This document shows, piece after piece, positions 3,846-59,833 of a stretch of DNA of 64,000 nt. Numbering within the stretch: position 1 is the stretch's first letter; each line of letters opens with the position of its first letter. Both the position numbers and the translations under genes were made by a program. The DNA is from Folioceros fuciformis (Eukaryota). The DNA is taken from assembly GCA_049999805.1 (NCBI GenBank), contig JBNGIO010006345.1:1-64000 (forward strand), written 5' to 3'. The notes beneath the pieces are model-generated. The model searched no databases, was not told the DNA's origin, and saw only the letters and a list, made by a program, of their open reading frames with translations.

Positions 3846-5444
3846 AATGACCTATTCCAGGGAGTGTGATTTGAGGCCGAGCTTGTAAAAAGTCCAATCA
3901 TTGTCATCTGCATCGAAACGCAGTACCGCTAGTTGTGGTGTCAGTGGTCTGGTCTATGTGGTTTGGGATTCCAGCTATCATAGACTTTGGGATGAAGAAT
4001 CCTTACATTTAGATAGCTTTGCTAGTGTATGTTATACTAAGCCTACATCTACCATCTTCTTTGGTTGCAATTTTGATGAAACATGGGAGAGTCTTGTTCC
4101 TAGCTTTTTTGGCTGCCTTTTTTTCATCTAGTGTCCTTTATCTTGCATCATGCACTATGTGCATATATTCATGCCATGTTGCATCCTATTATTTGGATTC
4201 CATTACATCTAGTTTTAACCCTTTTTATAAGTGAGCTCAACAAACATAGCAAAATAATGACATTCTTTCTTATGATTATGCTATTCATTTTAGCAACTTT
4301 GTATTGTTCTTTGCTTATGATCATNNNNNNNNNNGCTTATGATCATGCTATTCATTTTAGCAACTTTGTATTGTTCTTTGCAGTACTAGGATCTATAGAG
4401 ATATAAACTCCCTGTCATAGGTATATGTTATTCTTTTATGTACTTTTAAATCATGAATAAAATATAAAGCTGCTTTAAATTGGAGCTCTTGACAGTTAAC
4501 CAGCTATAGTGTAAAGTACGCAGGGCTAGGTTTATGGAGGGCGGACCTCTCCATGATATACATAGGGGAATACAATTGGAAAGCAATGTGTCCATATTCC
4601 CCTACGTTTACCTGTCCCCTCACATTCAGACTTCATCGTTCCCAAAGAAAAGCAAAGAAAAGAGGGCAGTACAAGTGGTCAAGGCCAGAATGCTGGCTGA
4701 GTCAAGACAGTGGCAAAGGGTACAAATGTCTGCATCATGGACTGCAGAAAGGGTCTTGGTTGATGGCACTACATGTATTTCGGTACAGATGAGGCACGCA
4801 TGGTGTGGAGCCCCGACTCATAAATGCTCACCAAGTTTGACAGGTTGTCTCGCGGAGGCCTGGTGCTGTCTGCTGATTTCTGGTTGTACACTTCAGGCCA
4901 CGGATTCCCTGATCTCTGAAGGTCATGTAGCAGTTGTCTGCAAACGCCACACGCATTCCAGTGGGTTAAACCTGGGGCAGTTTATGGGTAGCATCAAGGA
5001 TTCATGAGAATGATTTGAAGGACGTCCCTCATTGCAAATCAGGGTCCCTGCATCCAACGAATATTGCACGTCTTCAGTTACATCTTCAAGGGCAAAGCGA
5101 GCAGGGAATGTACCTGTCCAGAATCCGGGTGCTCGGTGCGTATCCACCCATGAGTGAGAGGGGAACGTCACAAAGTGGAGACACTCCGGAGGGTGAAAAT
5201 CCATGGCTACATCACGAGGGTGCTGAAACGAGCTCCAGACTGCTACGCAAATTGTAGAAGGGTTTCTCACGATGGGCATGTGTCTGCCGATCGGCAATGT
5301 CTACGGGTATCAGGATCAGGGGCAAGAAGAAAAAGGAATCCCTGTTTCTGGTGACTCACGTCTGAAGATCATCGATAGGCTCAAAGGGAGAATCTGTTGC
5401 ACAGCTTTGCCAGCATTCCTCCTGCCTGCCTGCTGAATCTGCCG

Positions 5445-9865: not shown

Positions 9866-11163
9866 GGTCGCACCCTCGCTTGTACAATATGAGCCTATCA
9901 TGGAATTCAATATTACTTTTTTCATATTTTAAATCACAAAATAAAAAATATATCTCAAATACTTATTTCACATCATGTAATTACCATCTATCTGACCTAC
10001 CTCTCTTTGTATGATATAAATATATAACCCTTTAATCTAGGGGTGAGAACTTTCTCAAACTAACTAACTATGTGACAATGGGAATTTTTGGATCTAATAC
10101 AAGGTAAGTTTAAAACGTGCCGATTCTTCACATGGAGCTTTTCATTGAATTTATGTGAAGATTTATATTGTATTTTTTTTGTAAGAAAATAAAAGTTAAA
10201 AAGAAAATAAAAAATAAACTTGTTATCATGTTGTGTGCAAAAGAGTCATATGATGCATCTTACATGATGTATAAAGTAGATAAAGATAGATTCAAGACAA
10301 ATAAATGAAGAAGATTTGATTAGGTTAATCTTTTCATAGCACAAGTCTTTGGAAGCATATAAAAGATTTTTCTCTCACACTAGTTTTTACGAACTTTTGC
10401 AATAATGCAATTCTGATTAATCTTTTTTGCTTGGAATTTGTGCAGCTTGATAGTCAAGCAGCTAAATTCCCTAGTTGTATTTCTTTCTTCCCATATGTTA
10501 TAACATAGATCTTTATTTTTATTTTTCTTCTTTTCTTGTCTTGTTTATGTTGTTATTTTTGCTCTAACATGAATGGAGGGCATTCTTGAAAATGTGAATG
10601 ATAACATGTAGTTTTAGTGATTGTATGTATGTGTCTATTACGTTCTTTCTTTCCTATAACTTTTCTTTTTCTCTATGTGTGTCAAGTGTTTGTGTCTTTT
10701 TCATTTCTTCATATCCCAGCCAATTCTTGTTCTTCATCAAACATCCCTTCTTTCTACATACCCAATTCTCAAACCCCAAATGCAAATGGACTTCCTCGAA
10801 AGGTTCTTACTCCAGTGCTAGCTATTTTCATGTTGTTAAGTTTAGGATATATCATCTATATCATTGTTTGTCAGCCTGTGTCTGAATTAGGCATCTTATA
10901 TTCTGGAGGTTTTGAAGATTTTGGAGACTAGCTAGTTCCTTATTGATTGGGTTGTGCTTTCAAATGTGTTTGTAAAATCATCTATGGCCTTGGCACACTT
11001 GCAAATCTCCGGGTTATATCATGTGCTTGAATTTGCTTTAAGCATTCAGAGTGTTGGGTTGGTCTTGAGATGTTTTGCTTATTGTAGCGACGTGAACCAT
11101 CAATCTAGATTTAGATCAAGAGATAGGATAATCAACCCATGTAGAGAAGCTCTAAGTCAGCTG

Positions 11164-11931
11164 ATGCAGCCCTTCTCCCAATCGCATCATTCACCAAGTA
11201 TTGGTGGTTCTCGCTTATGGCGTGCCATCATGCATTGTCTGAGTTTAACTAAAGCCTCTAGTGACGCGTTTTTTAACATGGATCATCATCCAAGGTTTGG
11301 TCACTACTCAGATGCAGCAGGGATGGAAGATGAACATTCAGAAGCAAATGAAAATTCTATCCGTGAATCCTGTACATTGCCCCCTCAATTGACCCAAGAC
11401 CATGGTAAGAAGACTCTCGTTTTAGATCTAGATGAGACCCTTGTTCATTCTTCATTTAAGCCAATCAGTAGCTATGATTTCATCTTCAATGTGGAGGTGG
11501 AAAACAAGATGACAGTGGTATATGTTTTGAAAAGACCATTTGTGGAGAAATTTCTCAAAACTGTTGCCCCAAAATTTGAGGTCGTGCTGTTTACGGCAAG
11601 CCTGAGAAAGTATGCCGATCCACTGGTTGATCAACTTGATGTTCACTCAAGCATTCGATACCGCTTGTATCGTGAATCTTGTCGTCATATTGACGGCGGC
11701 TATGTGAAGGATCTTTCCTTCCTTGGGAGAGACCTTAACAACACGATTATTGTGGACAACAGCCCACATTGCTATTCTCTACAACCTGAGAATGCTGTAC
11801 CTATTTCTACTTTTATGGATGATCCCAATGACCATGAATTGTTAGATTTGATCCCGTACTTAGATGTAATAGCAACATTCGATAATGTAAGAGAAGCTAT
11901 TATGGCCCACAAGTTTAAAGGCTCTAGATAA
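11164..11931 (+). CDS. SCP/CTDSP-like small CTD phosphatase (HAD, FCP1/NIF domain); start uncertain
   Basis: KKTLVLDLDETLVHSSF (DxDx[T/V]), VLKRP, FTAS, YVKDLSFLGRDL and IIVDNSP motifs in one uninterrupted ORF. Confidence 0.92.
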   Translation: MQPFSQSHHSPSIGGSRLWRAIMHCLSLTKASSDAFFNMDHHPRFGHYSDAAGMEDEHSEANENSIRESCTLPPQLTQDHGKKTLVLDLDETLVHSSFKPISSYDFIFNVEVENKMTVVYVLKRPFVEKFLKTVAPKFEVVLFTASLRKYADPLVDQLDVHSSIRYRLYRESCRHIDGGYVKDLSFLGRDLNNTIIVDNSPHCYSLQPENAVPISTFMDDPNDHELLDLIPYLDVIATFDNVREAIMAHKFKGSR

Positions 11932-36881: not shown

Positions 36882-39631
36882 ATGAGAAAAAGTGGCTCAG
36901 TTGTCTCGCGGAGTGTCCTGATTGACGGAGCCATAAACCTGTACACAAGAATATTGAGCTTGGAAGGCAGAGTGGAGTTTCCCGCATCTGGAAGGTGGTT
37001 TTGTTCCCTAGCACTAGTCACAAAGTTTCCGTTTGCATGCACAACTGGCTCGCGCGCTGGTGCGGACGTTTTTGGCAGGTAGGTACTGCATGATCTGTGA
37101 CCAAAAACCTTGCCATCTTTGTTGGAATCCCTTGGCTGGTGCTTGCCCAACACTACCCCTTTGGCTTAACCGTTGGCACATCTGTGACACGAGTGAGTCC
37201 ATGCAGGGTGAAGAGGAGTGATTGTGCTGCAAGGCCTCAAACACATGACGAACTTACGGTGGTGGTGGATCGCATGGGGAACGGAGGGTGGTATGTCCCA
37301 ACGGTCTTGCTTTATCTTCTTCTGAAGGAGTGCACTGTCAGGAAAGATGTACTCGTTGGGAGGCGAGTCCATGCCCTTGTCGTGGACAGTGGGTACGAGC
37401 TGAACAGAATTTTAGCCAACCACGTAGTGCGGATGTATGCTTTCAATGGGGATCTGTTGAAAGCAATGGAGGCTTTCAAGAAAGGTCCTGAACCCGACAC
37501 TTTTATGTGGGAGTCTATAATATCAGCCTACGGTGAACGTGGACAAGCAGAGTTGGCTGTATATCTGTATCAGCAGATGCGTCTGACCTCTGTCCAACCA
37601 AATGACTATATTTTTGTATCAGTACTTAAAGCTTGTGGTAGTGCCGCTGATTTGGCGGCTGGCAAACTTGTCCATGCTGATGTTGTGCGTTGCGGGCTTG
37701 AGTCCAACGTTTTTGTTGGAAACAGCGTGTTGGACATGTTTTTCAAATGTGGGAGTGTGGAGGATGCTCTGAGAGTGTTTCAGAGTATGCCGAGCAAAGA
37801 CGTTGTCACCTGGAATGTCATGATTGCAGGATACTCCCAACGTGGACACGTGGAGGAGGCCGTCCAGCTGTATGTGCACATGTTAGGCAGCTGTCTTGTA
37901 CCGGACAATGTTACATTCGTGTGCATCCTGAAAGCTTGTGTAAGCGCAGGAAGAATACAAGAGGGCAGGCTAATCCACACCCAAGTCCTACAGTATGGAC
38001 TTGAAGCTCATGTACGTGTTGGAAGCATGTTGGTGGACATGTATGTGAAATGCTCAAGCCTGGAGGATGCTTGCAAAGTTTTTCTCAGATTGCCGAACAG
38101 GAATGTAGTTACATGTAATGCCATGATTGCAGGATGTGCTCACCATGGCCTCGATTCAGAGGCCCTTCAATTGTACATCAGCATGGAAGAGGACGGAATG
38201 AAGCCAGACCAAACTACATTCATTAGCATGCTGAAAGTGTGTTCCGGCCTAGGAGCTTTGGAAGAAGGCAGGCGAATTCATACTCACATCTATCAACAAG
38301 GGCTGGAAGAAGGTATGCTCGTTGGAAGTGCTTTGGTGGACATGTATGCAAAATGTGGGAGTTTAGCGGATGCGGGTTGGGTGTTTGACCGATTGAAGAG
38401 TAGAAACGTGGTGACCTGGAGTGCCATGATTTCAGCATACGTTCAGCAGGGTTTTGGTCAGGAAGCCCTCAGGTTGTATGAAAGGATGCAGGAGGATAAT
38501 ATTCTGGGCAATAGCGTAACATTCGTGAGCCTCCTGACCGCTTGTGGTGCCACTGGTGCGTTGCAGGAGGGTAAAAGAATTCACGAACATATCCTGGAGA
38601 GAGGACTGGGAGCAGATGTGTGTGTTGGCACTGCACTGGTGGACATGTATGCTAAATGCGGAAGCCTGGAAGATGCCTGTAAAGTGTTCAAGGGACTGGC
38701 ATGCAGAAATGCAGTGACGTGGAATGCCCTCCTGAAAGCATATGGCCAGCACAACAATCATCACATGGTTGTGCGATGTTTTGAGGAGATGCAAAGCAAT
38801 GGAGCGAAGCCCGATTCGGCAACCTTCACCTGCCTCCTGACAGCATGCAGTCATGTTGGATCAGTAAATGAGGGCCGGCACTACTTCTCGTCCATGGAAC
38901 GTGAGCATGGCGTGGTGCCGACCCTTGAGCACTACAACTGCATGGTTGATATCTTGTGCAGGTTTGGGCACCTGGATGAAGGCAGAAAGTTGCTGGAAAC
39001 TATGCCGCATGAGGAAAACAGTGTTGGCTGGAATGCTTTCCTCGCTGGCTGCAAGATGCATGGCGACATGAAGTTAGCCGAGGTGGGCTACAATTGGCTC
39101 ATCCGAAATGCGCCACAACATGCCTCGGGGTATGTCCTCATGTCAAGCATGCATGCTGAGACTGGCGGGTGGGAGCACGTGGATTGCATTGACAAGCTTA
39201 GAGTACGTGCTGGCGCTGAGAAGAAGCCTGCAAATGCCCTGATTGAATTGAACAGCAAGGTGCAGGCGTTTACTGTTGGTGAAAGCATGGATGACGCAGG
39301 TGCCAAGCTAAGGAGTCTCAGCACACAGATGAAACAGGGTATGGGCCACGTTATCCAGCAGGCTGGCGACCAGAACGATAATTTGCCCTTCAAGGACGAG
39401 AAGGAAGATGCTCTGTGCGGACATGCTGAGAAGCTAGCTGTGGCCTCTGGCCTGCTAAATACCCAGGAAGGAACTACTTTGCGACTCATAAAGAATCTCC
39501 GGATGTGCAACGACTGCCACAAGGGGACGAAAGTACTTTCCCGAATCGAGAGGCGAGAAATCATCGTGCGAGATGCGCATCGTGTTCACCACTTCAAGGA
39601 TGGATTATGTTCCTGTGGTGATTACCATTGA
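36882..39631 (+). CDS. PLS-class PPR protein with E1/E2 and a DYW:KP-type deaminase-fold domain ending DYH; probable intron 37079-37206
   Basis: P-L-S triplets, KKPANALIE, HAEKLA, CNDCH, CSCGDYH. An upstream ATG at 36882 joins in frame through a GT-AG intron. Confidence 0.93.
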
Positions 39632-41336
39632 CAGTGGGCTCATTTTGCACACAAGTCTCACGAGCCCGCAAATGCCAGCCATGGATGGCAGTTTCTCCAT
39701 TACTTGATTTGTAAGTGTGAGGTCATGTGGTGGCAGTAGGCTTGAGTAGCGTAGATGCTCAGCTAAGTAACTAACCAAATCCTTCCTGGGTCTTTCAGGC
39801 CTTTCCAGTATCGGAGGAAACTCGTCAGAATAGCCGTCATCGTTGAGGTGAACAAACAAGTATGTGCTACCAACATGGTATCTACATTTGTGACAAGCAA
39901 GGTTTGCCCGCAAATGCCTTTCACTTTGTTACGATGCAACTGCTCCAGTGAAGAGCACGACTAGCAAGCTCATCACTATGCCAAGTGACAGCCCACGTCA
40001 TCGGTTTACTCTTCTGGACAACCGAGGAAGAGTCAGCACCTGCTCCAGCACTCGGACGAGGAGGGAACACATGAGACTGATGGCAAGGGGACTCCATCTC
40101 TGTAATCAGCCCTGGGTAATCCGACAAGACTTGATCAACCATTGCAATGTTACTGACACTGACAACCTTCTTGGTTTAGTTGTTGCGAATGTTCCACTCA
40201 GTCATGGGAAGTACATCTGTCCATCTTAAAAAGCGCGGAACCACCAGCTATCTCGAGGACCAAGAGAATCAATCCTTCTCTCATCAGTTGTTGTAGTCTC
40301 AGTGACTGCATTTCTTGCAGACTCCCACTGGGCTTGCTGATGACTTGTAGGGATATTCTCTTTGTGTTCTTTGAGCTCGCATCTTCCTGCCAAACATTAC
40401 AAGGCCTAGGTAGTTTCCAACGACCCTTTCTTTGACCTGGTCCAGTCGGCCATCCCGTCTAAACATGCAATCACAAACTGTCCGAAACAGGTCCGGGAAA
40501 CCAGAATGGTTCCTGGGTGAGAGTGTTGCCCATGCCCAATTATTCCATATTTTGTTCTAAAATTCCATTTCTGGATTCTTGGAGTAATACTCTGCAATGA
40601 CAGAGGAACCCAGACAAATAAATACTATCCATGGAATAGTTTACCTTTTTTGTTTTTCCAAAAAACTTTAATTAATATTTTAATTATCTAATTTCATAAA
40701 TACACTAAGTTTGACAATTACCTGATAGAAAACATGTTAAAGACATGTAGAAAATCTATTTAACACAAATAACTTAATAATACAATGGTGTATGCTTAAC
40801 ATAAAAATGATACAAGTTTATGAATTAAAAATAATATATTGTGGATCAATTTGTTATGAAGACTTATCCATCTTAGATCTCTTCTAAGTGGAGATCATAA
40901 TAGATGAAAATTTGAATATAGAAAATTTAATTTAAAATATATACTTTGATATTTTACTCTGCATGNNNNNNNNNNNNNNNNNNNNNNNNNNNNNNNNNNN
41001 NNNNNNNNNNNNNNNNNNNNNNNNNNNNNNNNNNNNNNNNNNNNNNNNNNNNNNNNNNNNNNNNNTTCAAATTCAAAAATATTATTAATTTGGAATATAT
41101 AAGTTTTTAAAATAAAATAATATTATAAATTTGGAAGCATTAAATTTTAAAAATATTATCCATTTGGATATATAAGTTCTCAACAAAGATTTGAACAACT
41201 GCAAGGGAAGCATTCAAGTTCAAGGTTATAAGAATTGTCTCGAATTTAGTTGAAAATCAAATTAAAAAATTTCACTTGAATTATTTTGCACAACAGAACT
41301 CTTCACCATAAACAAAAGTCTAGCCAGCTTGCAATC

Positions 41337-42603
41337 ATGAAAATCGTGACGACGTTTTTTATTTTCATTTTATTTGTAAGTTACACGAACATCGTGCTTG
41401 ATATAAGCCTTGTGTTTTGCATTGCATGAAATGTATAAACTCATGATCCTGAATTTGTAGGTTCAATTAGGAGTTGCAAGAAGAGATCTCTCCTTTTCGA
41501 AGAGCAATTCAAGTTCTCAAGAAGGAGGATTGAAATCGGGATCGGTACATCCAAGGATTCAAAATATGAAGGCCTTAGATTATTGGAACAAAGTGTTGGA
41601 AGACCTTATTATGCCGTCAGTCTTGAAGGATAAAATATCACCACTTTCCACTCGTGAGGTGGTTGAGTATTCCGACAAGATTAAAAAACACTTGCTGTTC
41701 TATGACCACAAACTTAGCAGCTCTTTCTGCGCGGCTGCAAATTTGTTGTGCCAAAGTTTGGATGATGGGCAAATGGAGATTATTGCCCTTGGTCTTTTCA
41801 ACGTATTTTATTATAGAGAATATATCGGCATAGCTTCTACTCCAGCAATGCCGAACTCTAGGTTCATGGATTTAGAAAAGTTTTCATGGTTTTATGAAAA
41901 AGACATGTTTTCGAATGTGAGGAAGAATATGAGGTACCCGAAAACGTTGTTCAACTTGGAAGGAAAGGGAATTGGAAGGTCGTTTCTTCCTCGAACTCTT
42001 GTGGGTGCATTGGGGAACTTGACTACAAGTAGTACTGCCTCGGTTATCGAAGCCTTTGGTATCTCAAGTACCTCGAGTTTGGCGAAGCTCATGTACCAAA
42101 CAAGTGTGGTTTGTGAGGAAGAGGGAGTCAGAGGAGAGATCAAATTTTGCGTTCAATCTATTGAAGATATGGCAGATCTTGTCAAACAAAGGTTGCATTT
42201 AGAGGGAAAGTATGAATATGTAGAAGTGTTGAATGGGATGTCGAGACCAAAACCTCTTCCGAAATCATACAACAATGAAGATTGGAAAATAATGAGAGTG
42301 GAAGCTAAGGGCGATGTTAAATCAAATTACATATCATGTCATTCTGCTACATTTTTATATCAAGTTTATGTATGTCATTACATTCCTAAAACGAAAATTT
42401 TCTCCGTTTCTCTAGAATCGATTCCATTAAGGCATAACAGATTGGATGTCGTGGTTTTGTGTCACACGGATACCCGGATGTGGGATCCGAATCATGTTGC
42501 TTTCAAAGTTTTGGGAGGTAAACCGGGAACCACCAGTGTTTGTCATTGGTCGAATTACGATGCTTTGGTGTTTGTTAAGCATAGTTATGTTAAAAAAGTG
42601 TAA
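41337..42603 (+). CDS. Secreted BURP-domain protein; exons 41337-41375, 41461-42603
   Basis: Signal peptide MKIVTTFFIFILF|VQLGVA; four CH dyads (SCHS, VCHY, LCHTDT, VCHW) and WDPNHVAFKVLGGKPG. Confidence 0.92.
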
Positions 42604-43011: not shown

Positions 43012-45549
43012 TCAGTGACGATCCCCGCATGAACAAGACCCGTCCAGAAAATGGTGTACTTGATGGGCATCTCGGACAATTATCTCCCGATTCTCCAGTC
43101 GTGACATGATCTTGGTGCTACTGTGGCAATCGTTGCACATGCGAAGATTCTTTGTAACCAGTAACGTTGTGCCATCTGGAGTGTTCATCAAACCGTATGC
43201 CAAGGCCAGTTTCTCTGCGTGCCCACACAAGGCGTCCTGCTTCTCCTGTTCAGACACTGCTTTTAGCACCAACTGAGTGTTGGGCACATGGCCTCCTTCA
43301 TCCTTCAACTTCGCACTCATGCTCTGCAGTTTCGACGATATGTCGGACCTCTCTTCTCCTACTCTGAACTCGTGCACCGTACTGTCGATTTCGATGCAAG
43401 CCTTTGCAGGTTTTTTCCAAGCACCTGAACTCTTTCTCAAGCTCTCGATGTCCTCCACGTCCTTCCATCTGCCAGCCTTGGCATATATGTGTGCCAGGAG
43501 GACATATGGGCTCGCATTCTCTGGTTCCCGAGCTGAAAGCTGGTCGAAGCATCGCCTTCCACGCTCAAGGTCACCATGGATCCTGCAGGCGCTCAGCAAG
43601 GCCTTCCAGCCCACGGTATCATTTTCGAAACGCATACTTTTCAGCATGTCTTCAGCTTCGTCCAGTAGGCCAGCCCGCCCAAGGAGATCAACCATGCAAG
43701 TATGGTGGTAGTCACTCGGCACAATGCCATGGACCTCCTGCATCATATTGAAGTACCGTTGACCTTCATCCACCAGACCTGCATGACTGCATGCCACAAG
43801 AAGGCAACTGTAAGAAGTCCCATCCGGCTTGACCCCCTGCTGGAGCATCTCGCTGAAACATTGCATGGCCATCCTAGAATCACCGTGCTCTGCATAGCCA
43901 TTGAGCAAAGCATTCCATGTCACCACGTCTTTCGTGTGCAGTCTTTCAAACAGCTGGCGAGCCACTTCCAAGCTCCCGCATTTCGCATACATATCCACAA
44001 GGCTGCTGCCAACGGACGCATTGGATTCTAGGCCCTTCTCACGAATCTGTGCGTGAAGCTGCTTCCCCTGATGTAGGGCTCCCACAATAGCACACGCTTT
44101 CAGGAGACACACCAACGTGACAGTATCAGCTGGGGACATGCCCTGACGTTGCATACTAGCATAGAGAGCAAGGGATTCTCGACCCTGCCCCTGTTGGGTA
44201 TAGCCTGTGATCATAGAGTTCCATGTGACAACATCTTTATTGGGCAGTGCGTCGAATACACTGCGAGCATCCTCTAAGCTCCCGCATTTTGCATACATAT
44301 CTACCAAGCAGTTGCCAACAAGTATATTGGCTTCCAATCCTCCTCGCCGGATCTGTGCATGCACATGCTTCCCCTGATCCAGATCTCCCACGCTACCACA
44401 TGCTTTCAGGAGGCACACAAAGGTAACAGGATCTGCTACATGGATGCCTTTCTGCTGCATGGCTGCATATAGAGCCAGAGCATCTCGCCCATGCCCTTGC
44501 TTCGTAAATCCTGCAATCATAGCATTCCACGTCACCACATCCTTTCTCGGCAAGCTGTTGAACACTCTGCGGGCGTCTTCTAAGCTCCCGCATTTGGCAT
44601 ACATGCTCACGAGGCTGTTGCCAACAAAAACATTGCCCCTGACAGAGCTTGTCAGAAGGTCAGCATGGACCTCCTTGCCCGCAACCAGGTCCTCTGCTGT
44701 GGCACATGCCTTGAGGACTGCCACAAATATATGGTTGTCTGGCTTCACACCTGAATCTCGCATCCGCCTGTACAGGCTTATAGCTTCCACGGCCTCCCCA
44801 TGTCGAGCATGCTCCAAGATCACCGTAGCCCACAGATGGGCGTCTGGTGCAGTTACCTTGCTGAACACCTGCACTGCGTCCTCCAACATCCCATGCCCGG
44901 CATACATGCGCACGACATGGGTGGCCAGGAATGCGTTCGACTCCAAGCCGCATACAACCGCAGCAGCATGCACGCGCTGGCCCAAAATGAGATTCTCTTC
45001 TGCCATGCATCTCTTCAAAACACGATACAGGAGAGACTCGCCAACATGACATCCTTCCTGCACTAGAAGTTCCAAGGCGTCGACAACCTCTCCCAGCTCG
45101 CCTTCGTCACAACGCCTTCTCAGGCTCTCAATCACCGAGTCCTCCTTTTCCCACCTGGCCAGCTGCGAACCCACCCAATCCGGCTTGTGTGGTGCACTGA
45201 GCCACAGGCCCTCCTTGGATGTCTTGTGCCTGAAGTCAGGATGGCGAGGGCTTTTCTTATCCCCCCGGTTGTCCCACCACTGCGTAGGATCCTGGAAGAA
45301 ATACCGCCACAACAGCTCCTGTCGCTCCTTCTTCTGCGTAATTCCTTCTGAGCTGTATGTCTCAAGGTATGTCCCTCTAGCAGAAGTGTTAATGCTACAC
45401 CCTAGCTTCACTGACAACGTGCCGAAGGCGTGAGAAAGCTCTGGCCTCGGTCTGCCACGCAAACGAGAGTCGGCAGGAGCTGCATTTGGCAGCCGGAGCA
45501 GCCATGGCATCGCCATATCCATGACACAAGCCTGTTCCAACCAAATCAT
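43012..45549 (-). CDS. PLS-PPR DYW:KP protein (DRH terminus) with an N-terminal OSB-type PDF motif; intronless
   Basis: WRYFFQDPTQWWDNRGDKKSPRHPDFRHKTSKEGLWL...PDWV, then PLS triplets, WKKPAKACIE, HAEKLA, CNDCH, CSCGDRH. Confidence 0.95.
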   Translation of the reverse strand: MIWLEQACVMDMAMPWLLRLPNAAPADSRLRGRPRPELSHAFGTLSVKLGCSINTSARGTYLETYSSEGITQKKERQELLWRYFFQDPTQWWDNRGDKKSPRHPDFRHKTSKEGLWLSAPHKPDWVGSQLARWEKEDSVIESLRRRCDEGELGEVVDALELLVQEGCHVGESLLYRVLKRCMAEENLILGQRVHAAAVVCGLESNAFLATHVVRMYAGHGMLEDAVQVFSKVTAPDAHLWATVILEHARHGEAVEAISLYRRMRDSGVKPDNHIFVAVLKACATAEDLVAGKEVHADLLTSSVRGNVFVGNSLVSMYAKCGSLEDARRVFNSLPRKDVVTWNAMIAGFTKQGHGRDALALYAAMQQKGIHVADPVTFVCLLKACGSVGDLDQGKHVHAQIRRGGLEANILVGNCLVDMYAKCGSLEDARSVFDALPNKDVVTWNSMITGYTQQGQGRESLALYASMQRQGMSPADTVTLVCLLKACAIVGALHQGKQLHAQIREKGLESNASVGSSLVDMYAKCGSLEVARQLFERLHTKDVVTWNALLNGYAEHGDSRMAMQCFSEMLQQGVKPDGTSYSCLLVACSHAGLVDEGQRYFNMMQEVHGIVPSDYHHTCMVDLLGRAGLLDEAEDMLKSMRFENDTVGWKALLSACRIHGDLERGRRCFDQLSAREPENASPYVLLAHIYAKAGRWKDVEDIESLRKSSGAWKKPAKACIEIDSTVHEFRVGEERSDISSKLQSMSAKLKDEGGHVPNTQLVLKAVSEQEKQDALCGHAEKLALAYGLMNTPDGTTLLVTKNLRMCNDCHSSTKIMSRLENREIIVRDAHQVHHFLDGSCSCGDRH

Positions 45550-46149
45550 CACATGGCATCATCGAACCTACCATTCCTGAATGTCATCCGCAATGTAGAT
45601 ACTCTCTTCCAACGACAAAGTCCTCCAAGATGGACCCGAGCCCTCCAGCGGAACCTTGCCAAAAGGAGCTCAGAGAGAAAGAAACACGACGCGCACAGCG
45701 AACCCACGCTGTGGAATTCTGATCTCGCAGATGCCAGGCGATCGGGGATCCAATATGGCCTCCTAACTTTCACCGTCTCAAAGAAAAATCATCTTCCGGA
45801 CTTCGATAGTACATATTGGATGAGGAACTCAAACGTGTACGCGGGAAGTGAGATCCTGTTTCACATGTTGTCGCGCACCACTGAAACCGCGGCAATGGGC
45901 AATGCTCCTCTAGTACACTTTGACTTCTCATGCACAAGAAGAAGCATCGTTGAGTGCCAGGGCCTGCTTCTAGCAACATCCACCGTGCACACAGGTGCAG
46001 AATTCATCGTCTTCCGCCGACCAGTCACTCTGTATGAATGCATGGCCTTGCATTCTGCGCAGACGGACAAGCCTTGTATACGGACAGGTTGCATTGCACT
46101 GCGGATGGATGAGGGAGCTGGAGCCAGAAGCAAAGGAGCAAGCTGGAGC

Positions 46150-46550: not shown

Positions 46551-46894
46551 AACAATCAGCAGCGAAAGAATACATGTGCAGACATCTTCCGTCCGGCTTA
46601 GTAAGCGCATAGCACTAAGTTTTGTTTCAGCCTGAGAGGAAACTGGACATGGAGGACGTTGTGGAATAGCGGTGTCCTGATGGTGCCGGTGCAGTCTATC
46701 CTACGAAGGGTAACAGTCGATGAAGAACAGCCAGCTGCGCGCAACAATCGCAACTCCGCCGGGCCTGCGCAGCATCCGCCTCCCCCCGAGACCGAGCAAC
46801 AACCGTGAACCCCGTCCGCCAGGCCAGTACACACGATGACGCCTCCCGTGCTGCCGCTCACCGCAGCGCACAGAATGCTTGGTTTGACTTGGCT

Positions 46895-47215
46895 TCACTT
46901 CTTGAGGCTGCCGCGCACACCGGGCTTGGGCTTGTTGGCTAGGTCGGAGCCGGAGACCGAGCCGTGCAGATTGAGCAGCTTGTCCTCCTCGAAGGGGAGT
47001 TTAGGGTGCCTGGCCTCGTGGTGGATGAGCATGCTCTTGGAGTCCGGCGCCGTGGCCTTGCAGATAGGGCAGGCGAGCTTGGCGTGCCCTCCCTTGTCCG
47101 CGCCCTTGCGATCCTCCACTCCCGCTTTCCCCCCGCCACGGTTGGTGGTGGCAGCGTCCACTTTCGCCGCAATTTCCTTTGCCGTGTGCTTCTTGGGCTT
47201 GGCCTTGCCTGTCAT
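46895..47215 (-). CDS. MBS1: METHYLENE BLUE SENSITIVITY small C2H2 zinc-finger protein
   Basis: MTGKAKPKKHTAKEI...NRGGGKAG...GGHAK.ACPICK...IHHEARHP...KPKPGVRGSLKK* matches the family end to end. Confidence 0.95.
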   Translation of the reverse strand: MTGKAKPKKHTAKEIAAKVDAATTNRGGGKAGVEDRKGADKGGHAKLACPICKATAPDSKSMLIHHEARHPKLPFEEDKLLNLHGSVSGSDLANKPKPGVRGSLKK

Positions 47216-48138
47216 GGTGCCGGCAGCAAGTGACACACGCTGGAATGGGGTTTGCAGCAAGGGCAGCGGGACCGATGACGATGGCGGCGCGTCTACAGCC
47301 TCGAGAGAGCTTGCCAAGCAATGTGCGCCCTCTCGACTCCACCACGGCGGCCGCGCCGGCCCAGTTATAGAGCGCCACCACCAAGCAGAGGCCCAGCCGG
47401 GGGACCAACGACTGATGAGACCCCACGCTCCAACAACTCCAAAATTTATAACAAAAACCCCTCCTACTTCGCCTACCTATCCAGCTGCTACTGTATGTCG
47501 GCACCGTCCCACATTTAGCAAACCTTTCTTGTTAAAGCCATCCCGGCCAATTTGTTTCGGGCCTTTGGCTCTCTTGGTTGTTCGTCCGTCCGGGGATTCT
47601 CTGTTGGAGTTAGATAAAAAAACTTTATCTCTTTTTTAACAATATATATATATATATATTTCATTTAATTTTATTTCCAATAAAGAATCATCATCCTTCC
47701 TTCCTTTCCGCCAGGCTCATTCCGTCCGTTCCGTTGCGACGGTTGGCCCCAGTTGTGCCATTTGGAGCGGCTCCACGGCGGTCGCTCCCGCGCTCACGCA
47801 GGGGCGGTTGAATCGTGAAGGGGGCATGCGTGCGTCGTCCCCGTGCCAGGCTTTGTGGGACACCAGTGTCGTTGCGATTTGTGCGCTTCGGTTAATTTTT
47901 TTTTCGTATGTTGGGCGTGCGCACGGATTTCTACCTTGGTTGTTGGACAGGTTCCTTCGACCGGCTGGCTCGCAATGTAGCACAAGCTTTGATCGTTGCA
48001 ACATGGCCTAAGCCTTCAATTTCACGAGCAAGGCACTCGCTCTCGAGAAGAGTGCCGTCTCCGGTGCATGGCCAACTGATAGCGAAAGAAATTGAGCCGC
48101 AAACTTATTAACTTGGCAGGCAGTGAGCGTGCTGTACA

Positions 48139-52380: not shown

Positions 52381-55053
52381 TCAATGCCGATCACCGCATG
52401 AACAAGAACCATCCAGGAAACGGTGAACTCGGTGAGCATCCCTAACCACGATCTCTCGCTTTTCAAGCCGTGATAAGATCTTGGTGCTACTATGGCAGTC
52501 AATACACATGCGCAGGTTCTTGGTGACCACCAAAGTGGTGCCATGTTGGATGTTGAGCAGCCCGTAAGCCAACGCCAGTTTCTCTGCATGCCCACACAAG
52601 GCATCTTCCTTCTGCTGCTCAGGCACTCGTTTCAGGACCAATTCTGTTCGTGGTACATGCCCACCTTCCTCCTGTAACCTCAGGCTCACACTCTTCACCT
52701 TTGATGAGATGTCAGATCTTTCTTCCCCTACGGTGAATTCATGCACTTTCTTCTGCACTTCTATGCACGCCTTTGCAGGCTTCTTCCAAGCACCTGCAGT
52801 CCGTCTCAGGCTTTCGATTTCATCTGCATCCTTCCACCTGCCTGCATTGGCGTAGATATTGCCCAGGAGAACGTATGCAGTTGCATTTTGAGGTTCCGAT
52901 CTCACCAGCATGTTGAAACATCGCCGTCCACGTTCTACATCACCGTAGCCTTTACACGCACTCAGCAAACAAGTCCAGCCAACCGTGTCCTTCTCGAATG
53001 GCATCCTCCGGAGGAAATCTTCTGCCTCGTCAAGATGGCCTGACCTCCCGAGAATATCGACAATGCAACTGTAGTGATAGTCGGTGGGCACGATGCCGTG
53101 CTCGTCCACCATTGCTTTGTAATACTTCAAGCCCTCATCCACCAGGCCTGCATGACTGCACGCCACGAGAAGGCAGGTGAAGGTTGTCTCATCTGGCTCA
53201 ATACCTTCCTCACACATGTCGTGGAAACACTGTATTGCCATCTCACCATCGCAGTGCTCAGCATAGCCTTTGATCATGGCGGTCCATGACACACGACTTC
53301 TGACTGGCAACCTGTCAAAAACTCCACGGGCATCCTCCAGGCTCCCACATTTTGCATACATGTCCACCAACGAGCTGCCAATAAACAAGTCGCCTTCCAG
53401 CCGTTGCTTCTTGATAAGGGAATGAAGCTCCCTTCCCTGATGGAGAGCTCCAACACTAGCACAAGCTTGGACAAGGCACGAGAGGGTCACAGAATCCAGT
53501 GGAGCCATGTCTTCCAGCTGCATACTGGCATAAAGAGCAAGAGCTTCCTTTCCACGTTCGTTGTGAGCATATCCTGACAGCATGCTTGTCCATGATACCA
53601 CATCCCTTACAACTAACCTGTCAAACACACTGCGAGCGTCGTCCACTCTTCCACATTTTGCATACATGTCCACCAGGCAGTTACATAGGACTAAATCACC
53701 CTCCCAACCTCGTTGCTTCATCTGCTCATGAAGCTGCTTCCCCTGCTCCAGATCTCTCACACTGGCACATACTTGAAGCAGGCACACGAATGTGCCATGG
53801 CTCGCTGCAATGCGACCCTCCTGCTGCATACGCGCGTACAGAGCCAGGGCTTCCCGACCTTGCCCTTGCTGTCCATATCCTCCCATCATAGCGTTCCATG
53901 TCACAACATCTCTCACAGGCTGCAATTTGTTGAACACACCCAGTGCATCCTTCAAGCTCCCACACTTTGCGTACATGCTCACCAGACAGTTGCCAACCTG
54001 CGGATCAGTTTCAAAGCCTCTTTCGCGAACGTGCGCATGAATGCGCCTCCCCTGCTGCAGGTCCCCCACACTAGCACACGCTTGAAGCAGGCAAACAAAT
54101 GTGACACGGTTGCCTGGAGTCATACCTTCCTCTTGCATGCGCTCATACAGAGCCAAGGCATGTTGGCCACGCCCCTGCTGCGTGTACCCTGCTATCATGG
54201 CAGTCCATGTCACCACATCCCTTGTTGGCAGATGATCAAACACTATGCGAGCCTCCTCTAAGCTCCCACACTTTGCATACATGCTGACCAGGCTGTTCCC
54301 AACGAACAAATTGTCCTTCATCGGACTCTCCAAAACGTCAGCATGGATTTCTTTGCCTCCAGCTACGTCCCCTGCACTGGCACAAGCCTTGAGGACAGCC
54401 ACAAATATGTGGCCATCCGGCTTCAAAGACGAGGACTCTCGCATCTGTCGGTACAGACCTAAGGCCTCCACGGCCTCTCCATGCCGAGCATGTGCCAGTA
54501 TAATGCTGGCCCAGAGATGGGCATCCGGCTCGGCCACTTTGGCAAACACGTGAACCGCATCCTGCACCTTCCCATGAGCGGCGTACATAGTGACGAAATG
54601 GGTGGCCAAGAATGCATTCGACTCAAACCCACTACTCAGAGCAGCAGCATGAACTCGCCTTCCCATAGCCAGATCCTTGCGTGCTATGCACTTCTTGAGA
54701 ACGCAGTACAAGATCTCCTTCCTTTTAGTATGACTGTAACGTCCTCCCTGCTGCAGTAAAAGGTCCAGGGCTTCCACTGCCTCACCCAGCTCTCCTTCAC
54801 AACAGCGTTTCTCCAACTCTTCAGCAACCATGTTCCTGGTATCCGCCCAACTACGCTTTTTCTTGAGTTGGATGTCAGCCCGCAGCCCCAGCCCCTCCAT
54901 GTATGCATTGTGCCTGAAGTCCGGATGCCCGAGTGCCTTCTTGTTCCCCCTGTTGCTCTCTCCAGAAAGAGCCCAAAGGCTTCCATCCACCAAATAACTT
55001 TTCTGCAGAGCCCAAGCCCTTCCATCCACCGAGAAACCTGGCCCGACGAGCAT
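52381..55053 (-). CDS. PLS-PPR DYW:KP protein (DRH terminus) with a degenerate N-terminal PDF motif; start uncertain
   Basis: NRGNKKALGHPDFRH...EGLGL, PLS triplets, WKKPAKACIE, HAEKLA, CIDCH, CSCGDRH. First in-frame ATG is at 55053. Confidence 0.94.
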   Translation of the reverse strand: MLVGPGFSVDGRAWALQKSYLVDGSLWALSGESNRGNKKALGHPDFRHNAYMEGLGLRADIQLKKKRSWADTRNMVAEELEKRCCEGELGEAVEALDLLLQQGGRYSHTKRKEILYCVLKKCIARKDLAMGRRVHAAALSSGFESNAFLATHFVTMYAAHGKVQDAVHVFAKVAEPDAHLWASIILAHARHGEAVEALGLYRQMRESSSLKPDGHIFVAVLKACASAGDVAGGKEIHADVLESPMKDNLFVGNSLVSMYAKCGSLEEARIVFDHLPTRDVVTWTAMIAGYTQQGRGQHALALYERMQEEGMTPGNRVTFVCLLQACASVGDLQQGRRIHAHVRERGFETDPQVGNCLVSMYAKCGSLKDALGVFNKLQPVRDVVTWNAMMGGYGQQGQGREALALYARMQQEGRIAASHGTFVCLLQVCASVRDLEQGKQLHEQMKQRGWEGDLVLCNCLVDMYAKCGRVDDARSVFDRLVVRDVVSWTSMLSGYAHNERGKEALALYASMQLEDMAPLDSVTLSCLVQACASVGALHQGRELHSLIKKQRLEGDLFIGSSLVDMYAKCGSLEDARGVFDRLPVRSRVSWTAMIKGYAEHCDGEMAIQCFHDMCEEGIEPDETTFTCLLVACSHAGLVDEGLKYYKAMVDEHGIVPTDYHYSCIVDILGRSGHLDEAEDFLRRMPFEKDTVGWTCLLSACKGYGDVERGRRCFNMLVRSEPQNATAYVLLGNIYANAGRWKDADEIESLRRTAGAWKKPAKACIEVQKKVHEFTVGEERSDISSKVKSVSLRLQEEGGHVPRTELVLKRVPEQQKEDALCGHAEKLALAYGLLNIQHGTTLVVTKNLRMCIDCHSSTKILSRLEKREIVVRDAHRVHRFLDGSCSCGDRH

Positions 55054-56368: not shown

Positions 56369-59300
56369 ATGGCTACGGTATCGCAACCGGAACCGTTCTC
56401 GACTCGACAAATTGAGGTATGTACACTGATTCCAGGAGCTCCCGCTCACCTGAGCTCCTTAGGGAGTCAACAGATGGCAAGCAAAGCCTCCAGATGCAGC
56501 AGTATAAGGAGATCAACACTTCCAGTTGGTCGTTTCCAGCGGCAGGAGCACTTGTGGGGGGACAACAGACGAGATCAGAAGAGCTCCCGTTCCCCTTTCA
56601 TCCGGCAAGGGGGGTCTGGCGAGGTCCTGTGCTTAAACAACATGTGTAGGCCAGCTTGGGTTGATGAGCAGGTCGTTTCCTTGGATATTCAGATGGGTAT
56701 TGGTGCCTCTCCTTCCGAGTCAAACTCTCCACATAAGCCTGAACCTGGCAGGCGTGCAGGTTCAGGAATGGGAGTCGCTCCGGCTGTAACTGTGAGCACG
56801 TTGTGTCAGCAGGGGAAGCTTGCTGAGGCAGTTGGAGCCCTGGAATCTCTGGCGCATGCAGGCCCTGCTATTTCTCAGTCTCTGGTTTGCACTTTGCTGA
56901 AATTGTGCACACATAAGAAGGATTTGGTTGTGGGGCGACGACTTCATGATCTCACTGTCAAACTTGGATACGAGTCGAATGCATACCTGGGGAACCATGT
57001 CTTGCGCATGTATGCATGTGGAGGTAGTCTGCAGGAGGCTATGGATGTGTTCAGCAGGATGGTCAAACCAAATGTCATTACGTGGGGTTCTATCATCTTT
57101 GCATGTGCTAAACATGGGAAACCTTACGAGGCCATACAACTATATCATGAGATGCGCAGGTCAGGAATCAGGGCGAATGGTCACGTCTTTGTAGCTGCCC
57201 TTCAGGCCTGTGCACTTGCGGCTGACTTAGAATGTGGCAGAAGGGTGCACCGCGACGTGGTGGGCAGTGGCATTCCTACTAACTTGTTTGTTGGCAACTG
57301 CCTGGTGGACATGTATGTAAAATGTGGCGACCTGAATGATGCACGCCAGGTTTTCGACAGCATGGCCACAAAGAATGTAGTGACATGGACTGCCCTGATA
57401 GCTGGGTATACCCAGCATGGGCTCGGGCTAGAGGCGCTTGCTCTGTATAATCGAATGGAGCAGGAGGGCCTGATTTTCGCTAACCATGTGACGTTTGCTT
57501 GCCTTCTGAAGGCCTGTGCAAGCACTGGTGCCTTACAAAAGGGTAGGCAGCTGCACTCACAGATTGTGGGAAGAGGACTTCTGGATAACGTAATCTTGGG
57601 CAACTGCCTGGTGGAAATGTATGCAAAATGTGGCAAACTGGAAGAGGCACGCCAGGTTTTTAACAGGATGAACACAAAGGATGTCGTTACTTGGACGGTG
57701 CTGATTGCTGCGTATTCAAAATGTGAACCTGCTAAGCACGGGAAACCTAACGAGGCCATACAACTCTACCGTGAGATGCGTAGGTCAGGAGTGAAAGCGA
57801 ATAGTCACGTCTTTGTGGCTGTCCTTCAGGCTTGCGCATTCGCCACAGACTTGGAATCTGGCAGAAAAGTGCACTGTGATTTGTTGAACAGTGACACTCC
57901 TGCTAACTTGTTTGTTGGTAACTGCCTGGTGGACATGTATGCAAAATGTGGGGAACTGAAAGATGCTCGCCAGGTGTTTGAAAGCATGGCTGAAAAGGAT
58001 GTGGTGACATGGAATGCCCTGATTTCTGGGTACGGGCAGCAAGGACTCTGCCAACAGGCGCTTGCTTTGTATGGACAAATGGAGGAGACGGGCCTCACTT
58101 TGGCCGACCGTTTCACTTTTGCCTGCCTTCTGAAGGCTTGTGCAAGCACTGGTGCCCTACAGAAGGGCAGGCAGCTGCACTCACAGATCATCGAGAGAGA
58201 ACTGCTGGATGATGTAGTGGTGGGTAACTGCCTGGTGGACATGTATACAAAATGCGGTGAACTGGAAGACGCACGTCAGGTGTTTGACAGCTTGGCCACA
58301 AAGGATGTGGTGACATGGACAGCGCTGATCGCCGGGTATGCACAGCAAGGACTCGGCCAAGAGGCGCTTGTTGTATATAGGCAAATGGAGGAGGCGGGCC
58401 TCGTTTTGGCTGATCATGTAACTTTTTCTTGCCTTTTGAAGGCCTGTGGAAGCACTGGTGCCTTACGAAAGGGCAAGCAGTTTCACGCACAGATTGTTAA
58501 AAGAGGACTTCGGGATGACGTTGTGCTGGGCAACTCCCTGGTGGACATGTATGCCAAATGTGGTGAACTGGAAGATGCACGCCAGGTTTTTGACAGCATG
58601 AACACAAGGAATGTGGTGACATGGAATACTCTGATCGCTGGGTATGCACAGCAAGGGCTCAGACATGAAGCGCTTGTCTTGTATGAACAGATGGAGCAGG
58701 AGGGGGTGATGTTAGCTGACCGTGTCACTTTTGCTTGCCTTCTAAAGGCGTGTGCAAGCACTGGTGCCTTACAGAAGGGCAGGCAGCTGCACTCTCAGAT
58801 TGTTGAAAGAGGTCTGCTGGATGACGTAGTGCTGGGCAACTGCCTCGTGGACATGTACGCAAAGTGTGGTGAAGTGGATGATGCACGCGGGATTTTTGAA
58901 AGCTTAGCCTCAAAGGATGTGGCGACATGGAATGCCCTGATATCTGGGTACGGTGCTAATGATGATGGTCATAGAGCACTCGCTTGTTTTGATGAGATGC
59001 TAGTTGCCGGTATTCGGCCTAATGGTGCTACGTTTACTTGCCTTCTAGTAGCATGCAGTCATGAGGGACTGGTCGACGAGGGTCGCGAACACTTCGATTC
59101 CATGGCTGCAGAGCATGGCGTCGAACCTACTACGGAGCATTACAATTGCATGATCGATCTTCTTGGGCGTGCCGGCCATTTACATGAGGCAGAGCAGGTG
59201 CTATTATCATGTGACTGGCAAAGTAATGTTGTGGGCTTGACGGCTTTGTTGAATGCCTGCAAGAATCACGGGGATATAGAGAGGGCTGTGTGGTGTTTTG

Positions 59301-59833
59301 AACGAATTGTCAGGCTGGAGCCTCAAGGAGCGTCTGCCTATATGCTCATGGCCAATGCCTACGCAGAGGCAGGTCAGTGGACCGACGTAGACAGGATTGA
59401 GACACACAGAGTGGTAGCCAGAGCTAACAAGAAACCTGCAGTGGCGACCATCGAGGTGAACAATCAGGTTCATCGGTTCCTGGTGGGAGAAAGGAGAGAG
59501 GACATTGCTCTCAAGGTAGAGAGCACGAATGCACGTGTGAAGCAGGAAGGAGGCCACGTACCTGACACAAAGCTGGTGTTGAAGCCAGTGTGTGAGAAGG
59601 AAAAGGAAGATGCGCTTTGCGGGCATGCTGAGAAGCTAGCTCTGGCGTTTGGTCTCTTGAACACTCCGAGTGGGACACCTCTGGTTGTCACGAAGAATCT
59701 ACGCATGTGCAGTGACTGCCACAGTTCCACGGAGATCATGTCAAGACTGGAGCAGAGACACATCGTTGTGAGGGACGGGTACCGTGTGCATCGATTCTCA
59801 GCTGGATGTTGCAGTTGTAAGGGTCGACCGTGA
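56369..59833 (+). CDS. Long PLS-PPR DYW:KP protein (GRP terminus) with a vestigial PDF motif; true start may be 56474
   Basis: LWGDNRRDQKSSRSPFIR...LCL...PAWV, about 23 PLS motifs, KKPAVATIE, HAEKLA, CSDCH, CSCKGRP. Confidence 0.95.
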   Translation: MATVSQPEPFSTRQIEVCTLIPGAPAHLSSLGSQQMASKASRCSSIRRSTLPVGRFQRQEHLWGDNRRDQKSSRSPFIRQGGSGEVLCLNNMCRPAWVDEQVVSLDIQMGIGASPSESNSPHKPEPGRRAGSGMGVAPAVTVSTLCQQGKLAEAVGALESLAHAGPAISQSLVCTLLKLCTHKKDLVVGRRLHDLTVKLGYESNAYLGNHVLRMYACGGSLQEAMDVFSRMVKPNVITWGSIIFACAKHGKPYEAIQLYHEMRRSGIRANGHVFVAALQACALAADLECGRRVHRDVVGSGIPTNLFVGNCLVDMYVKCGDLNDARQVFDSMATKNVVTWTALIAGYTQHGLGLEALALYNRMEQEGLIFANHVTFACLLKACASTGALQKGRQLHSQIVGRGLLDNVILGNCLVEMYAKCGKLEEARQVFNRMNTKDVVTWTVLIAAYSKCEPAKHGKPNEAIQLYREMRRSGVKANSHVFVAVLQACAFATDLESGRKVHCDLLNSDTPANLFVGNCLVDMYAKCGELKDARQVFESMAEKDVVTWNALISGYGQQGLCQQALALYGQMEETGLTLADRFTFACLLKACASTGALQKGRQLHSQIIERELLDDVVVGNCLVDMYTKCGELEDARQVFDSLATKDVVTWTALIAGYAQQGLGQEALVVYRQMEEAGLVLADHVTFSCLLKACGSTGALRKGKQFHAQIVKRGLRDDVVLGNSLVDMYAKCGELEDARQVFDSMNTRNVVTWNTLIAGYAQQGLRHEALVLYEQMEQEGVMLADRVTFACLLKACASTGALQKGRQLHSQIVERGLLDDVVLGNCLVDMYAKCGEVDDARGIFESLASKDVATWNALISGYGANDDGHRALACFDEMLVAGIRPNGATFTCLLVACSHEGLVDEGREHFDSMAAEHGVEPTTEHYNCMIDLLGRAGHLHEAEQVLLSCDWQSNVVGLTALLNACKNHGDIERAVWCFERIVRLEPQGASAYMLMANAYAEAGQWTDVDRIETHRVVARANKKPAVATIEVNNQVHRFLVGERREDIALKVESTNARVKQEGGHVPDTKLVLKPVCEKEKEDALCGHAEKLALAFGLLNTPSGTPLVVTKNLRMCSDCHSSTEIMSRLEQRHIVVRDGYRVHRFSAGCCSCKGRP

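Follow-up and report, generated by a model that had tools for sequence, protein, structure and literature searches.

An OSB-type PDF motif at the N-terminus of a DYW:KP-type PPR protein of Folioceros fuciformis, and related PDF–PPR fusions of seed-free land plants

Gene 43012–45549 and its domain organisation

We analysed a stretch of 64,000 nucleotides (nt) from Folioceros fuciformis (assembly GCA_049999805.1, contig JBNGIO010006345.1, positions 1 to 64,000), referred to here as the window. The ORF list and its translation in the standard code contain an intronless open reading frame (ORF) of 845 amino acids on the minus strand, at 43012–45549. Its product is, according to Pfam, a PLS-type PPR-E-DYW protein, and between its presequence and its PPR tract it carries a PDF motif of the kind present in OSB proteins. 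The parts of the gene are the following:

43012..45549, minus strand: the whole ORF, with presequence, PDF motif, PLS-type PPR tract, E motifs and DYW:KP (DRH) domain (translation, Pfam)
45328..45549, minus strand: residues 1–74, basic S/T-rich N-terminal presequence, a putative organelle targeting peptide (isoelectric point (pI) 9.23, 12 S+T)
45145..45327, minus strand: residues 75–135, complete OSB-type PDF motif, which encloses 45160–45315 (profile scores, AlphaFold2)
43579..45132, minus strand: residues about 140–657, PLS-type PPR tract, whose first PPR-like hairpin is predicted to follow directly on the final helix of the PDF motif (Pfam, AlphaFold2)
43393..43578, minus strand: residues 658–719, E motif (Pfam PF20431, 7.2e-15)
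43015..43293, minus strand: residues 753–845, KP-class DYW deaminase domain with DRH tail (Pfam PF14432, 3e-37; KKPAKACIE, HAEKLA, CNDCH, GDRH)

Pfam finds nine PPR stretches (1.7e-66), E_motif at 658–719 (7.2e-15) and DYW_deaminase at 753–843 (3e-37) in the 845-residue protein, which therefore combines tandem PPR motifs, an E motif and a DYW deaminase with HxE...CxxCH, as PLS-class PPR-DYW editing factors do. No Pfam family matches residues 1–150, and neither this part nor the whole length contains the SSB or OB-fold match that membership of the OSB family would demand. An in-frame stop lies immediately upstream of the first ATG, and there are four candidate start methionines (residues 1, 10, 12 and 14). 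Residues 79–130 read ...LLWRYFFQDPTQWWDNRGDKKSPRHPDFRHKTSKEGLWLSAPHKPDWVGSQL... and correspond to positions 45160–45315, exactly the letters given in the initial annotation; translation and Pfam also confirm that the segment stands between the basic presequence and the PPR tract in a single uninterrupted ORF. The 61 residues of the PDF motif (75–135) have a pI of 9.6 and include 12 K+R and 6 of the 15 tryptophans of the protein.

Contigs of four sequencing runs are collinear with the genome across the PDF region, and in the runs of two other organisms collinear contigs, about 6–11% different, extend across 44588–45759. The summed contig depth of DNA run X1 is 298.7 in the bin 45207–45315, compared with 67.4 and 17.4 in the flanking bins. 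A similar rise is seen in runs X2, X4 and X11, and contigs diverge at 45266 and 45300; we read the peak as many further contigs which match the core of the motif at 80% or more, and not as copy number. The contigs of run X2 end at 45747, where those of X1 continue; X2 is only guessed to be RNA, so that this is a weak hint at most and was not used.

Identity of the PDF motif

PDF motifs have about 50 residues, are named for Pro-Asp-Phe and are found in one to three copies after the OB fold of OSB proteins (reviewed in PMC6963530 and PMC4166229; these and all other PMC articles are cited here from the accessible parts of their texts). They are responsible for the binding of single-stranded DNA (ssDNA) by OSB proteins (PMC4166229), and the motif of AtOSB1 alone is enough for it (PMC6963530). 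Both AtOSB1 and AtOSB2 prefer ssDNA over double-stranded DNA or RNA (PMC6963530, PMC4166229).

We used phmmer to compare residues 60–140 with 1.84 billion representative sequences and listed the best 150 matches. At E≤1e-3 the search finds 711 proteins, of which 236 reach ≤1e-10 and 20 reach ≤1e-30. Proteins named OSB3 by their sources include P0005 (Chenopodium, 2.7e-51) and P0009 (Amborella, 1.5e-46), and many proteins named OSB1, OSB2 and OSB3, with Arabidopsis entries among them, appear among the matches listed for a later search with a profile of PPR-linked motifs. The OB-fold region of two OSB3-named proteins is matched by 75 of the best 150 phmmer matches. A Pfam scan of 136 of the 150, which left out the 12 PPR matches and the two longest proteins, finds SSB (PF00436) in 40; Pfam has no model for the PDF motif, and most of these 136 non-PPR matches hit no family.

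A further comparison is with a profile built solely from 183 motifs of 75 OB-fold-bearing OSB-type proteins (the OSB-only profile). It matches the window motif with 72.0 bits (E 1.2e-24 at Z=1) over profile positions 2–60 of 61, whereas the best of 1000 residue shuffles (983 scored) reaches 18.3 bits, and a chance match of the segment is therefore rejected. The profile of the 150 external matches gives 79.9 bits. The window motif keeps 11/11 invariant columns of the PPR-linked alignment and all nearly invariant columns of the 136 non-PPR matches. On this sequence evidence, residues 75–135 are confirmed as a true homologue of the OSB PDF motif; the initial annotation had made this identification and had named a profile comparison with OSB motifs as its check, and the significant match bears it out. 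A word-index homologue search with the single 66-residue motif gave three candidates and no match, a limit of its sensitivity, since the alignment query found 1094 proteins.

The window protein and the OSB proteins share the pattern W..L/F..P..WWDNR..K..P..PDF.HK....LWL....P.WV over about 55 residues, but they differ in everything around it. OSB proteins contain an SSB-like OB fold and, after it, one to three C-terminal PDF motifs, without PPR or DYW, and in those among the matches the motif sits in the C-terminal half of the mature protein. The window protein has no OB fold; its PDF motif is N-terminal and is followed by the PLS-PPR tract and the deaminase domain.

Many of the best 150 phmmer matches contain 2–13 tandem PDF motifs. 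The highest numbers, far above the one to three described for OSB proteins, are seen in P0001 (Kingdonia uniflora, 1160 residues, 13 motifs) and P0004 (a JGI record, 908 residues, 11 motifs). In P0029 (Striga) and P0035 (Coptis) the motifs are joined to ROP-interactor or kinesin annotations, which may reflect merged gene models. P0140 (186 residues) has a complete C-terminal PDF motif after an Ala/Gln/Pro-rich N-terminal stretch of 125 residues unlike OSB or PPR. P0023 (eukprot PRCOL_00002760) is an SSB-domain protein with PDF motifs, whose record name points to Prasinoderma, an early-diverging green alga; in that case the OSB/PDF combination is older than land plants.

Predicted structure

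AlphaFold2 models the 66-residue segment, with an alignment of 17 rows, at a predicted local distance difference test score (pLDDT) of 90.7 and a predicted template modelling score (pTM) of 0.75. The predicted elements are a helix, three short strands (WWD, FRH, LW) and a helix, which points to an autonomous small α/β fold. Residues 60–400, modelled with 29 PDF–PPR rows, reach a pLDDT of 93.4 and a pTM of 0.81, and all blocks of 10 residues between model residues 21 and 310 have a pLDDT of 90 or above. Model helix 66–89 (protein residues 125–148) is unbroken, is followed by helix 93–105 and leads into the first PPR hairpin with no low-confidence linker; the motif is thus predicted to be rigidly joined to this hairpin, without a flexible linker. 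All nine invariant columns (9/9) of the 29-protein PDF–PPR alignment, which covers five plant lineages and was chosen for having the motif, lie within the PDF motif.

Comparisons with solved structures give no match: the motif profile finds none among Protein Data Bank (PDB) chains at E≤1, with Foldseek, the best E of the motif model against the PDB is 2.8, and with VIA-align the best Z over 48,161 chains is 3.8, with none at Z≥5. For a predicted fold, the absence of a solved match does not prove novelty.

Class of the deaminase domain

The DYW domain begins with WKKPAKACIE, which has a K-P pair and not P-G, contains HAEKLA (HAE instead of HSE) and CNDCH, and ends in ...CSCGDRH. A Lys-Pro pair instead of Pro-Gly near the start of the domain defines the DYW:KP class (PMC11845758); Ala in the HxE triplet (HAE) and a C-terminal DRH instead of DYW characterise the hornwort DRH subgroup, and DRH and GRP tails mark the two hornwort KP subgroups (PMC9478123). 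By these sequence features the domain is of the KP class and DRH type, and the initial annotation had this right.

The window protein therefore resembles the hornwort DRH-subgroup DYW:KP factors, which include candidate and engineered U-to-C editors (Gerke et al. 2020 and Gutmann et al. 2020, cited after PMC9478123), in its PLS tract, E motif, K-P pair, HAE, CxxCH and DRH tail. It differs in its N-terminus: that family is defined by its C-terminal domains, and the accessible parts of PMC9478123 and PMC11845758 do not mention an N-terminal PDF module. Synthetic KP editors active in E. coli and human cells are Trx-His-PLS-DYW constructs, for which the accessible text likewise does not mention a PDF motif (PMC9478123).

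PDF–PPR fusions in other plants

Twelve of the best 150 phmmer matches show similarity to the window protein in its PPR-DYW part as well, and two further fragments among the 150 end within the start of a PPR motif. Sources named for such PDF–PPR proteins include Diphasiastrum complanatum, Sphagnum compactum, Pteridium aquilinum and Adiantum capillus-veneris. The profile search with 17 PPR-linked motifs finds 1094 proteins at E≤1e-3, of which the best 120 were examined; 32 of these contain PPR Pfam domains, and 29 of the 32 come from Diphasiastrum, with two or three N-terminal PDF motifs each. The DYW Pfam domain is present in four of the best 120, each with HSE and a tail reading DYW, which places them in the PG class.

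The 120 best full-length PLS relatives were scored with the OSB-only profile; a PDF motif was counted as present at 40 bits or more, and DYW classes were assigned by our own pattern rules. Each search is represented by its best 120 matches, a sample that does not amount to a census. The motif is present in 34 of the PLS relatives, by class as follows:

PG class: 11 of 32
KP class: 2 of 13
unclear DYW class: 2 of 6
no DYW found: 19 of 69

The difference between the PG and KP classes has a Fisher p of 0.29, so that this count of fusions by DYW class gives no KP enrichment. The initial annotation had tied the architecture to the U-to-C (KP) class; this is not supported, as the fusion is found in PG proteins and also in many E-type or DYW-less ones. 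The motif was likewise rejected as a marker of the KP class, being present in PG-type and E-type proteins and decayed or absent in the KP paralogues of the window. Since the module is common to C-to-U-type proteins, it has no specific bearing on the U-to-C mechanism.

By source, the 34 PDF-positive PLS relatives comprise 26 from Diphasiastrum, four from the liverwort Calypogeia fissa, one from Sphagnum jensenii and three from JGI or Logan records. In 33 of them the PDF motifs lie within the first 340 or so residues. The exception is P0175 (Diphasiastrum complanatum, 1362 residues), with motifs at 141–197 and 679–735, which is probably two adjacent PDF–PPR genes merged in one gene model. Seed-plant rows of the same 120 relatives lack the motif (Cryptomeria 0/8, Tetracentron 0/1, and 0/13 for rows named Gb_, which we take to be Ginkgo), and no seed-plant row among the matches listed is a PDF–PPR fusion; nor is any PDF–PPR fusion from algae seen among them.

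These sequences place the N-terminal layout of one to three PDF motifs and a PLS-PPR tract in liverwort, moss, lycophyte, fern and hornwort-type (KP) lineages, combined with one or the other DYW class. As in the window protein, the motif stands directly upstream of the PLS tract in proteins of Diphasiastrum complanatum (e.g. P0169, P0196, P0234), Calypogeia fissa (P0310, P0289), Sphagnum (P0085, P0256), Adiantum (P0030) and Pteridium (P0091), and the motifs of these seed-free-plant proteins form one tree group with that of the window. They differ from it in that their DYW domain, where they have one, belongs to the canonical PG class (HSE, PG box, DYW tail), whereas that of the window protein is KP; the lycophyte proteins also have two or three tandem PDF motifs and the window protein only one. 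Database annotation describes all these proteins as hypothetical or PPR proteins only.

Origin of the fusion and decay in the KP paralogues

We used IQ-TREE for a tree of 126 motif instances, 38 of them PPR-linked (from 29 proteins, including the window protein) and 88 OSB-linked (from 32 proteins picked randomly among 134). All 38 PPR-linked motifs fall inside one set of 41 rows with a Shimodaira–Hasegawa-like approximate likelihood ratio test (SH-aLRT) value of 98; three OSB rows lie within it, one of them from an Adiantum OSB protein (P0235). Constraining the PPR-linked motifs to stay together gives a tree of higher likelihood than the unconstrained one (approximately unbiased test, p-AU 0.793). 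A single origin of the PPR-linked motifs is thus not rejected by the sequences, nor is it proven, since the alignment has only 60 columns.

Gene 43012–45549 is one of four intronless KP-type PPR-E-DYW genes within about 22 kb (37274–59833), with the tails DYH, DRH, DRH and GRP; the DRH and GRP tails place both hornwort KP subgroups side by side in one cluster, and such a set of genes by itself makes a hornwort origin of the window likely. The two DRH genes, 43012–45549 and 52381–55053, are 65.5% identical over their PPR-DYW part, which suggests local duplication. The three other genes of the cluster show the following at their N-termini:

54883..54954, minus strand: decayed PDF remnant (NRGNKKALGHPDFRHNAYMEGLGL; conserved Trp lost) at the N-terminus of the KP/DRH paralogue 52381–55053 (11.7 bits, E 0.012, six-frame window scan)
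56540..56674, plus strand: decayed PDF remnant (W.DNR..KS..SPFIRQ...LCL...PAWV; P-D-F triplet lost) at the N-terminus of the KP/GRP gene 56369–59833 (21.0 bits, E 1.4e-5, alignment)
37274..39631, plus strand: KP-type PPR-DYW ORF with tail DYH, the fourth in the cluster (Pfam, translation); neither the ORF nor the 450 nt upstream contains a PDF motif (six-frame profile scan)

Alignment to the intact motif shows that paralogue 52381–55053 keeps only NRGNKKALGHPDFRH... of it. Of the 13 KP proteins among the best 120 PLS relatives, P0322 (GRP) contains the motif intact, P0347 and P0359 each show a partly decayed copy, and the others lack it; some of the 11 of 13 scored as lacking it may be N-terminally truncated ORFs. 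As two neighbouring KP paralogues have decayed copies, the motif is dispensable for some editors.

Other features of the window

The remaining features of the window are the following:

41566–42603, plus strand: BURP-domain ORF (Pfam 1.3e-44), convergent with the PPR gene 43012–45549, the stop codons being about 400 nt apart
10984–11931, plus strand: NIF/CTD-like phosphatase ORF (Pfam 1.7e-58)
8063–9121, minus strand, and 46836–47639, plus strand: ORFs with no Pfam match
1631–1730, 2993–3002, 4325–4334 and 40966–41065: four runs of N (220 bases in total), assembly gaps

The N run 40966–41065 lies 500 nt upstream of the BURP ORF.

Proposed role of the PDF motif

The reading we favour, tentatively and with a little less than even confidence, is that the motif is an accessory cap which binds single-stranded nucleic acid non-specifically at the 5' end of the RNA footprint of an organelle editor. 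We take the protein to be an RNA-editing factor for organelles, of the PLS-PPR / DYW:KP (DRH) kind, with a PPR solenoid that one PDF motif caps N-terminally. The N-terminal repeats of a PPR tract contact the 5' part of the RNA site, and the cap would therefore border the footprint on its 5' side. In this position it could act as a single-strand grip without sequence specificity, which would raise the affinity or on-rate for the target transcript; alternatively, it could keep the upstream RNA single-stranded. It would be accessory and have no part in catalysis or site recognition, because synthetic KP editors are described without a PDF motif in the accessible literature and natural paralogues lose it; an accessory role would in turn account for its decay or loss in some paralogues.

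Several points weigh against this reading. The role in binding or editing is proposed for the PDF–PPR proteins from sequence and model, and the AlphaFold2 model was judged by its confidence scores and its order of helices and strands, so that any alignment of the aromatic face of the motif with the RNA groove is conjecture. AtOSB1 and AtOSB2 prefer ssDNA to RNA (PMC4166229), so that RNA binding by the window copy is an extrapolation. No sequencing run recorded as RNA contains gene 43012–45549. Decay in the paralogues and absence from 11 of the 13 KP relatives indicate that editors work without the motif, the contribution of which may be small.

Binding of ssDNA with a preference over RNA, the only biochemical property measured for the motif (PMC4166229, PMC6963530), speaks for a different use: the cap would bind organellar ssDNA and hold the editor at nucleoids or transcription bubbles, coupling editing to transcription. 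OSB2 is pTAC9, a conserved nucleoid-core protein (PMC10493611), and the PPR-linked motifs retain the invariant residues of the OSB motifs. We consider such a tether unlikely, though a real possibility, as the predicted rigid join would put the motif in line with the bound RNA and not on a flexible tether, and as paralogues have lost the motif. The cap might instead oligomerise or recruit a partner, such as an editosome component, and not bind nucleic acid at all. AtOSB2 is tetrameric (PMC6963530), many proteins have 2–13 tandem PDF motifs, as is often the case for scaffold repeats, and the predicted fold has no solved nucleic-acid-binding analogue; a protein–protein module is nonetheless distinctly unlikely, given that the motif alone suffices for ssDNA binding (PMC6963530). 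Its Trp/Lys/Arg-rich composition is typical of single-strand binders, and we know of no partner for it, which also counts against such a module.

Loss in the paralogues is what would be expected of an inherited relic, fused once to an ancestral PLS protein, spread by duplication and now of little or no function and nearing loss in the hornwort-type KP family. Of the three other KP genes of the window, two have decayed copies and one has none, P0347 and P0359 are partly decayed, 11 of the 13 KP relatives lack the motif, and it is in no seed-plant row among the matches listed. The window copy, however, retains every invariant residue and scores like OSB motifs (79.9 and 72.0 bits), and the motif is the most conserved part of the 29 PDF–PPR proteins of five plant lineages, a set chosen for having it; we find a relic quite improbable here. 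It is hardly credible that the segment is cleaved off together with the transit peptide, or lost by splicing, and so absent from the mature protein, even though it lies within the first 135 residues, after a basic presequence: unlike transit peptides, the motif is conserved residue for residue across land plants, its confidently predicted fold runs by its last helix into the first PPR hairpin, it is located in the mature C-terminal half of OSB proteins, and the contigs of four runs are collinear with the genome over the region.

On a broader reading, the PDF cap would be an ancestral, general part of the PLS editing factors of land plants. Its fusion would have happened once, before bryophytes and vascular plants separated, and seed plants would have lost it; it would serve as a built-in, cis-acting affinity helper, either as an RNA grip 5' of the PPR footprint or by holding the displaced DNA strand and so promoting co-transcriptional editing. 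As a whole this is rather improbable. MORF proteins belong to seed plants, and we know of no MORF-like helper in seed-free plants; the distributions of PDF–PPR proteins and MORF proteins are apparently complementary, with the PDF side taken from a small sample. The MORF/RIP proteins of seed plants are separate accessory proteins which raise the RNA affinity of PLS-PPR tracts (PMC11897456). Their likeness to the PDF cap would be a functional analogy only, that of a non-specific helper of PLS-PPR RNA binding; they differ in being unrelated in sequence and in acting in trans on the L motifs.

Significance of the PDF–PPR fusion

No description of a PDF–PPR fusion was found in the searchable literature, a search to which Zaegel 2006, Gerke 2020, Gutmann 2020 and all supplements were external. 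The accessible text of a 2024 PPR review names bZIP, coiled-coil, WQQ and PPR-SMR as additional domains and does not contain the terms ssDNA or single-stranded DNA. The fusion proves to be common in seed-free land plants and seems previously undescribed.

PLS-PPR editing factors are usually described as a targeting peptide, a PPR tract and E/DYW domains, and 34 of the best 120 PLS relatives add to these a conserved OSB-type module with a confidently predicted fold. With the fusion, the PDF motif, which has been little studied, acquires a second protein context; the fusion also matters for designing programmable C-to-U and U-to-C editors. Should the module work as proposed, it would be an extra part of the editosome in seed-free plants. 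If the broader, ancestral reading were true, the RNA grip would be a job which trans-acting MORF proteins have taken over in seed plants, and the addition of a PDF cap to synthetic PPR editors would alter their efficiency.

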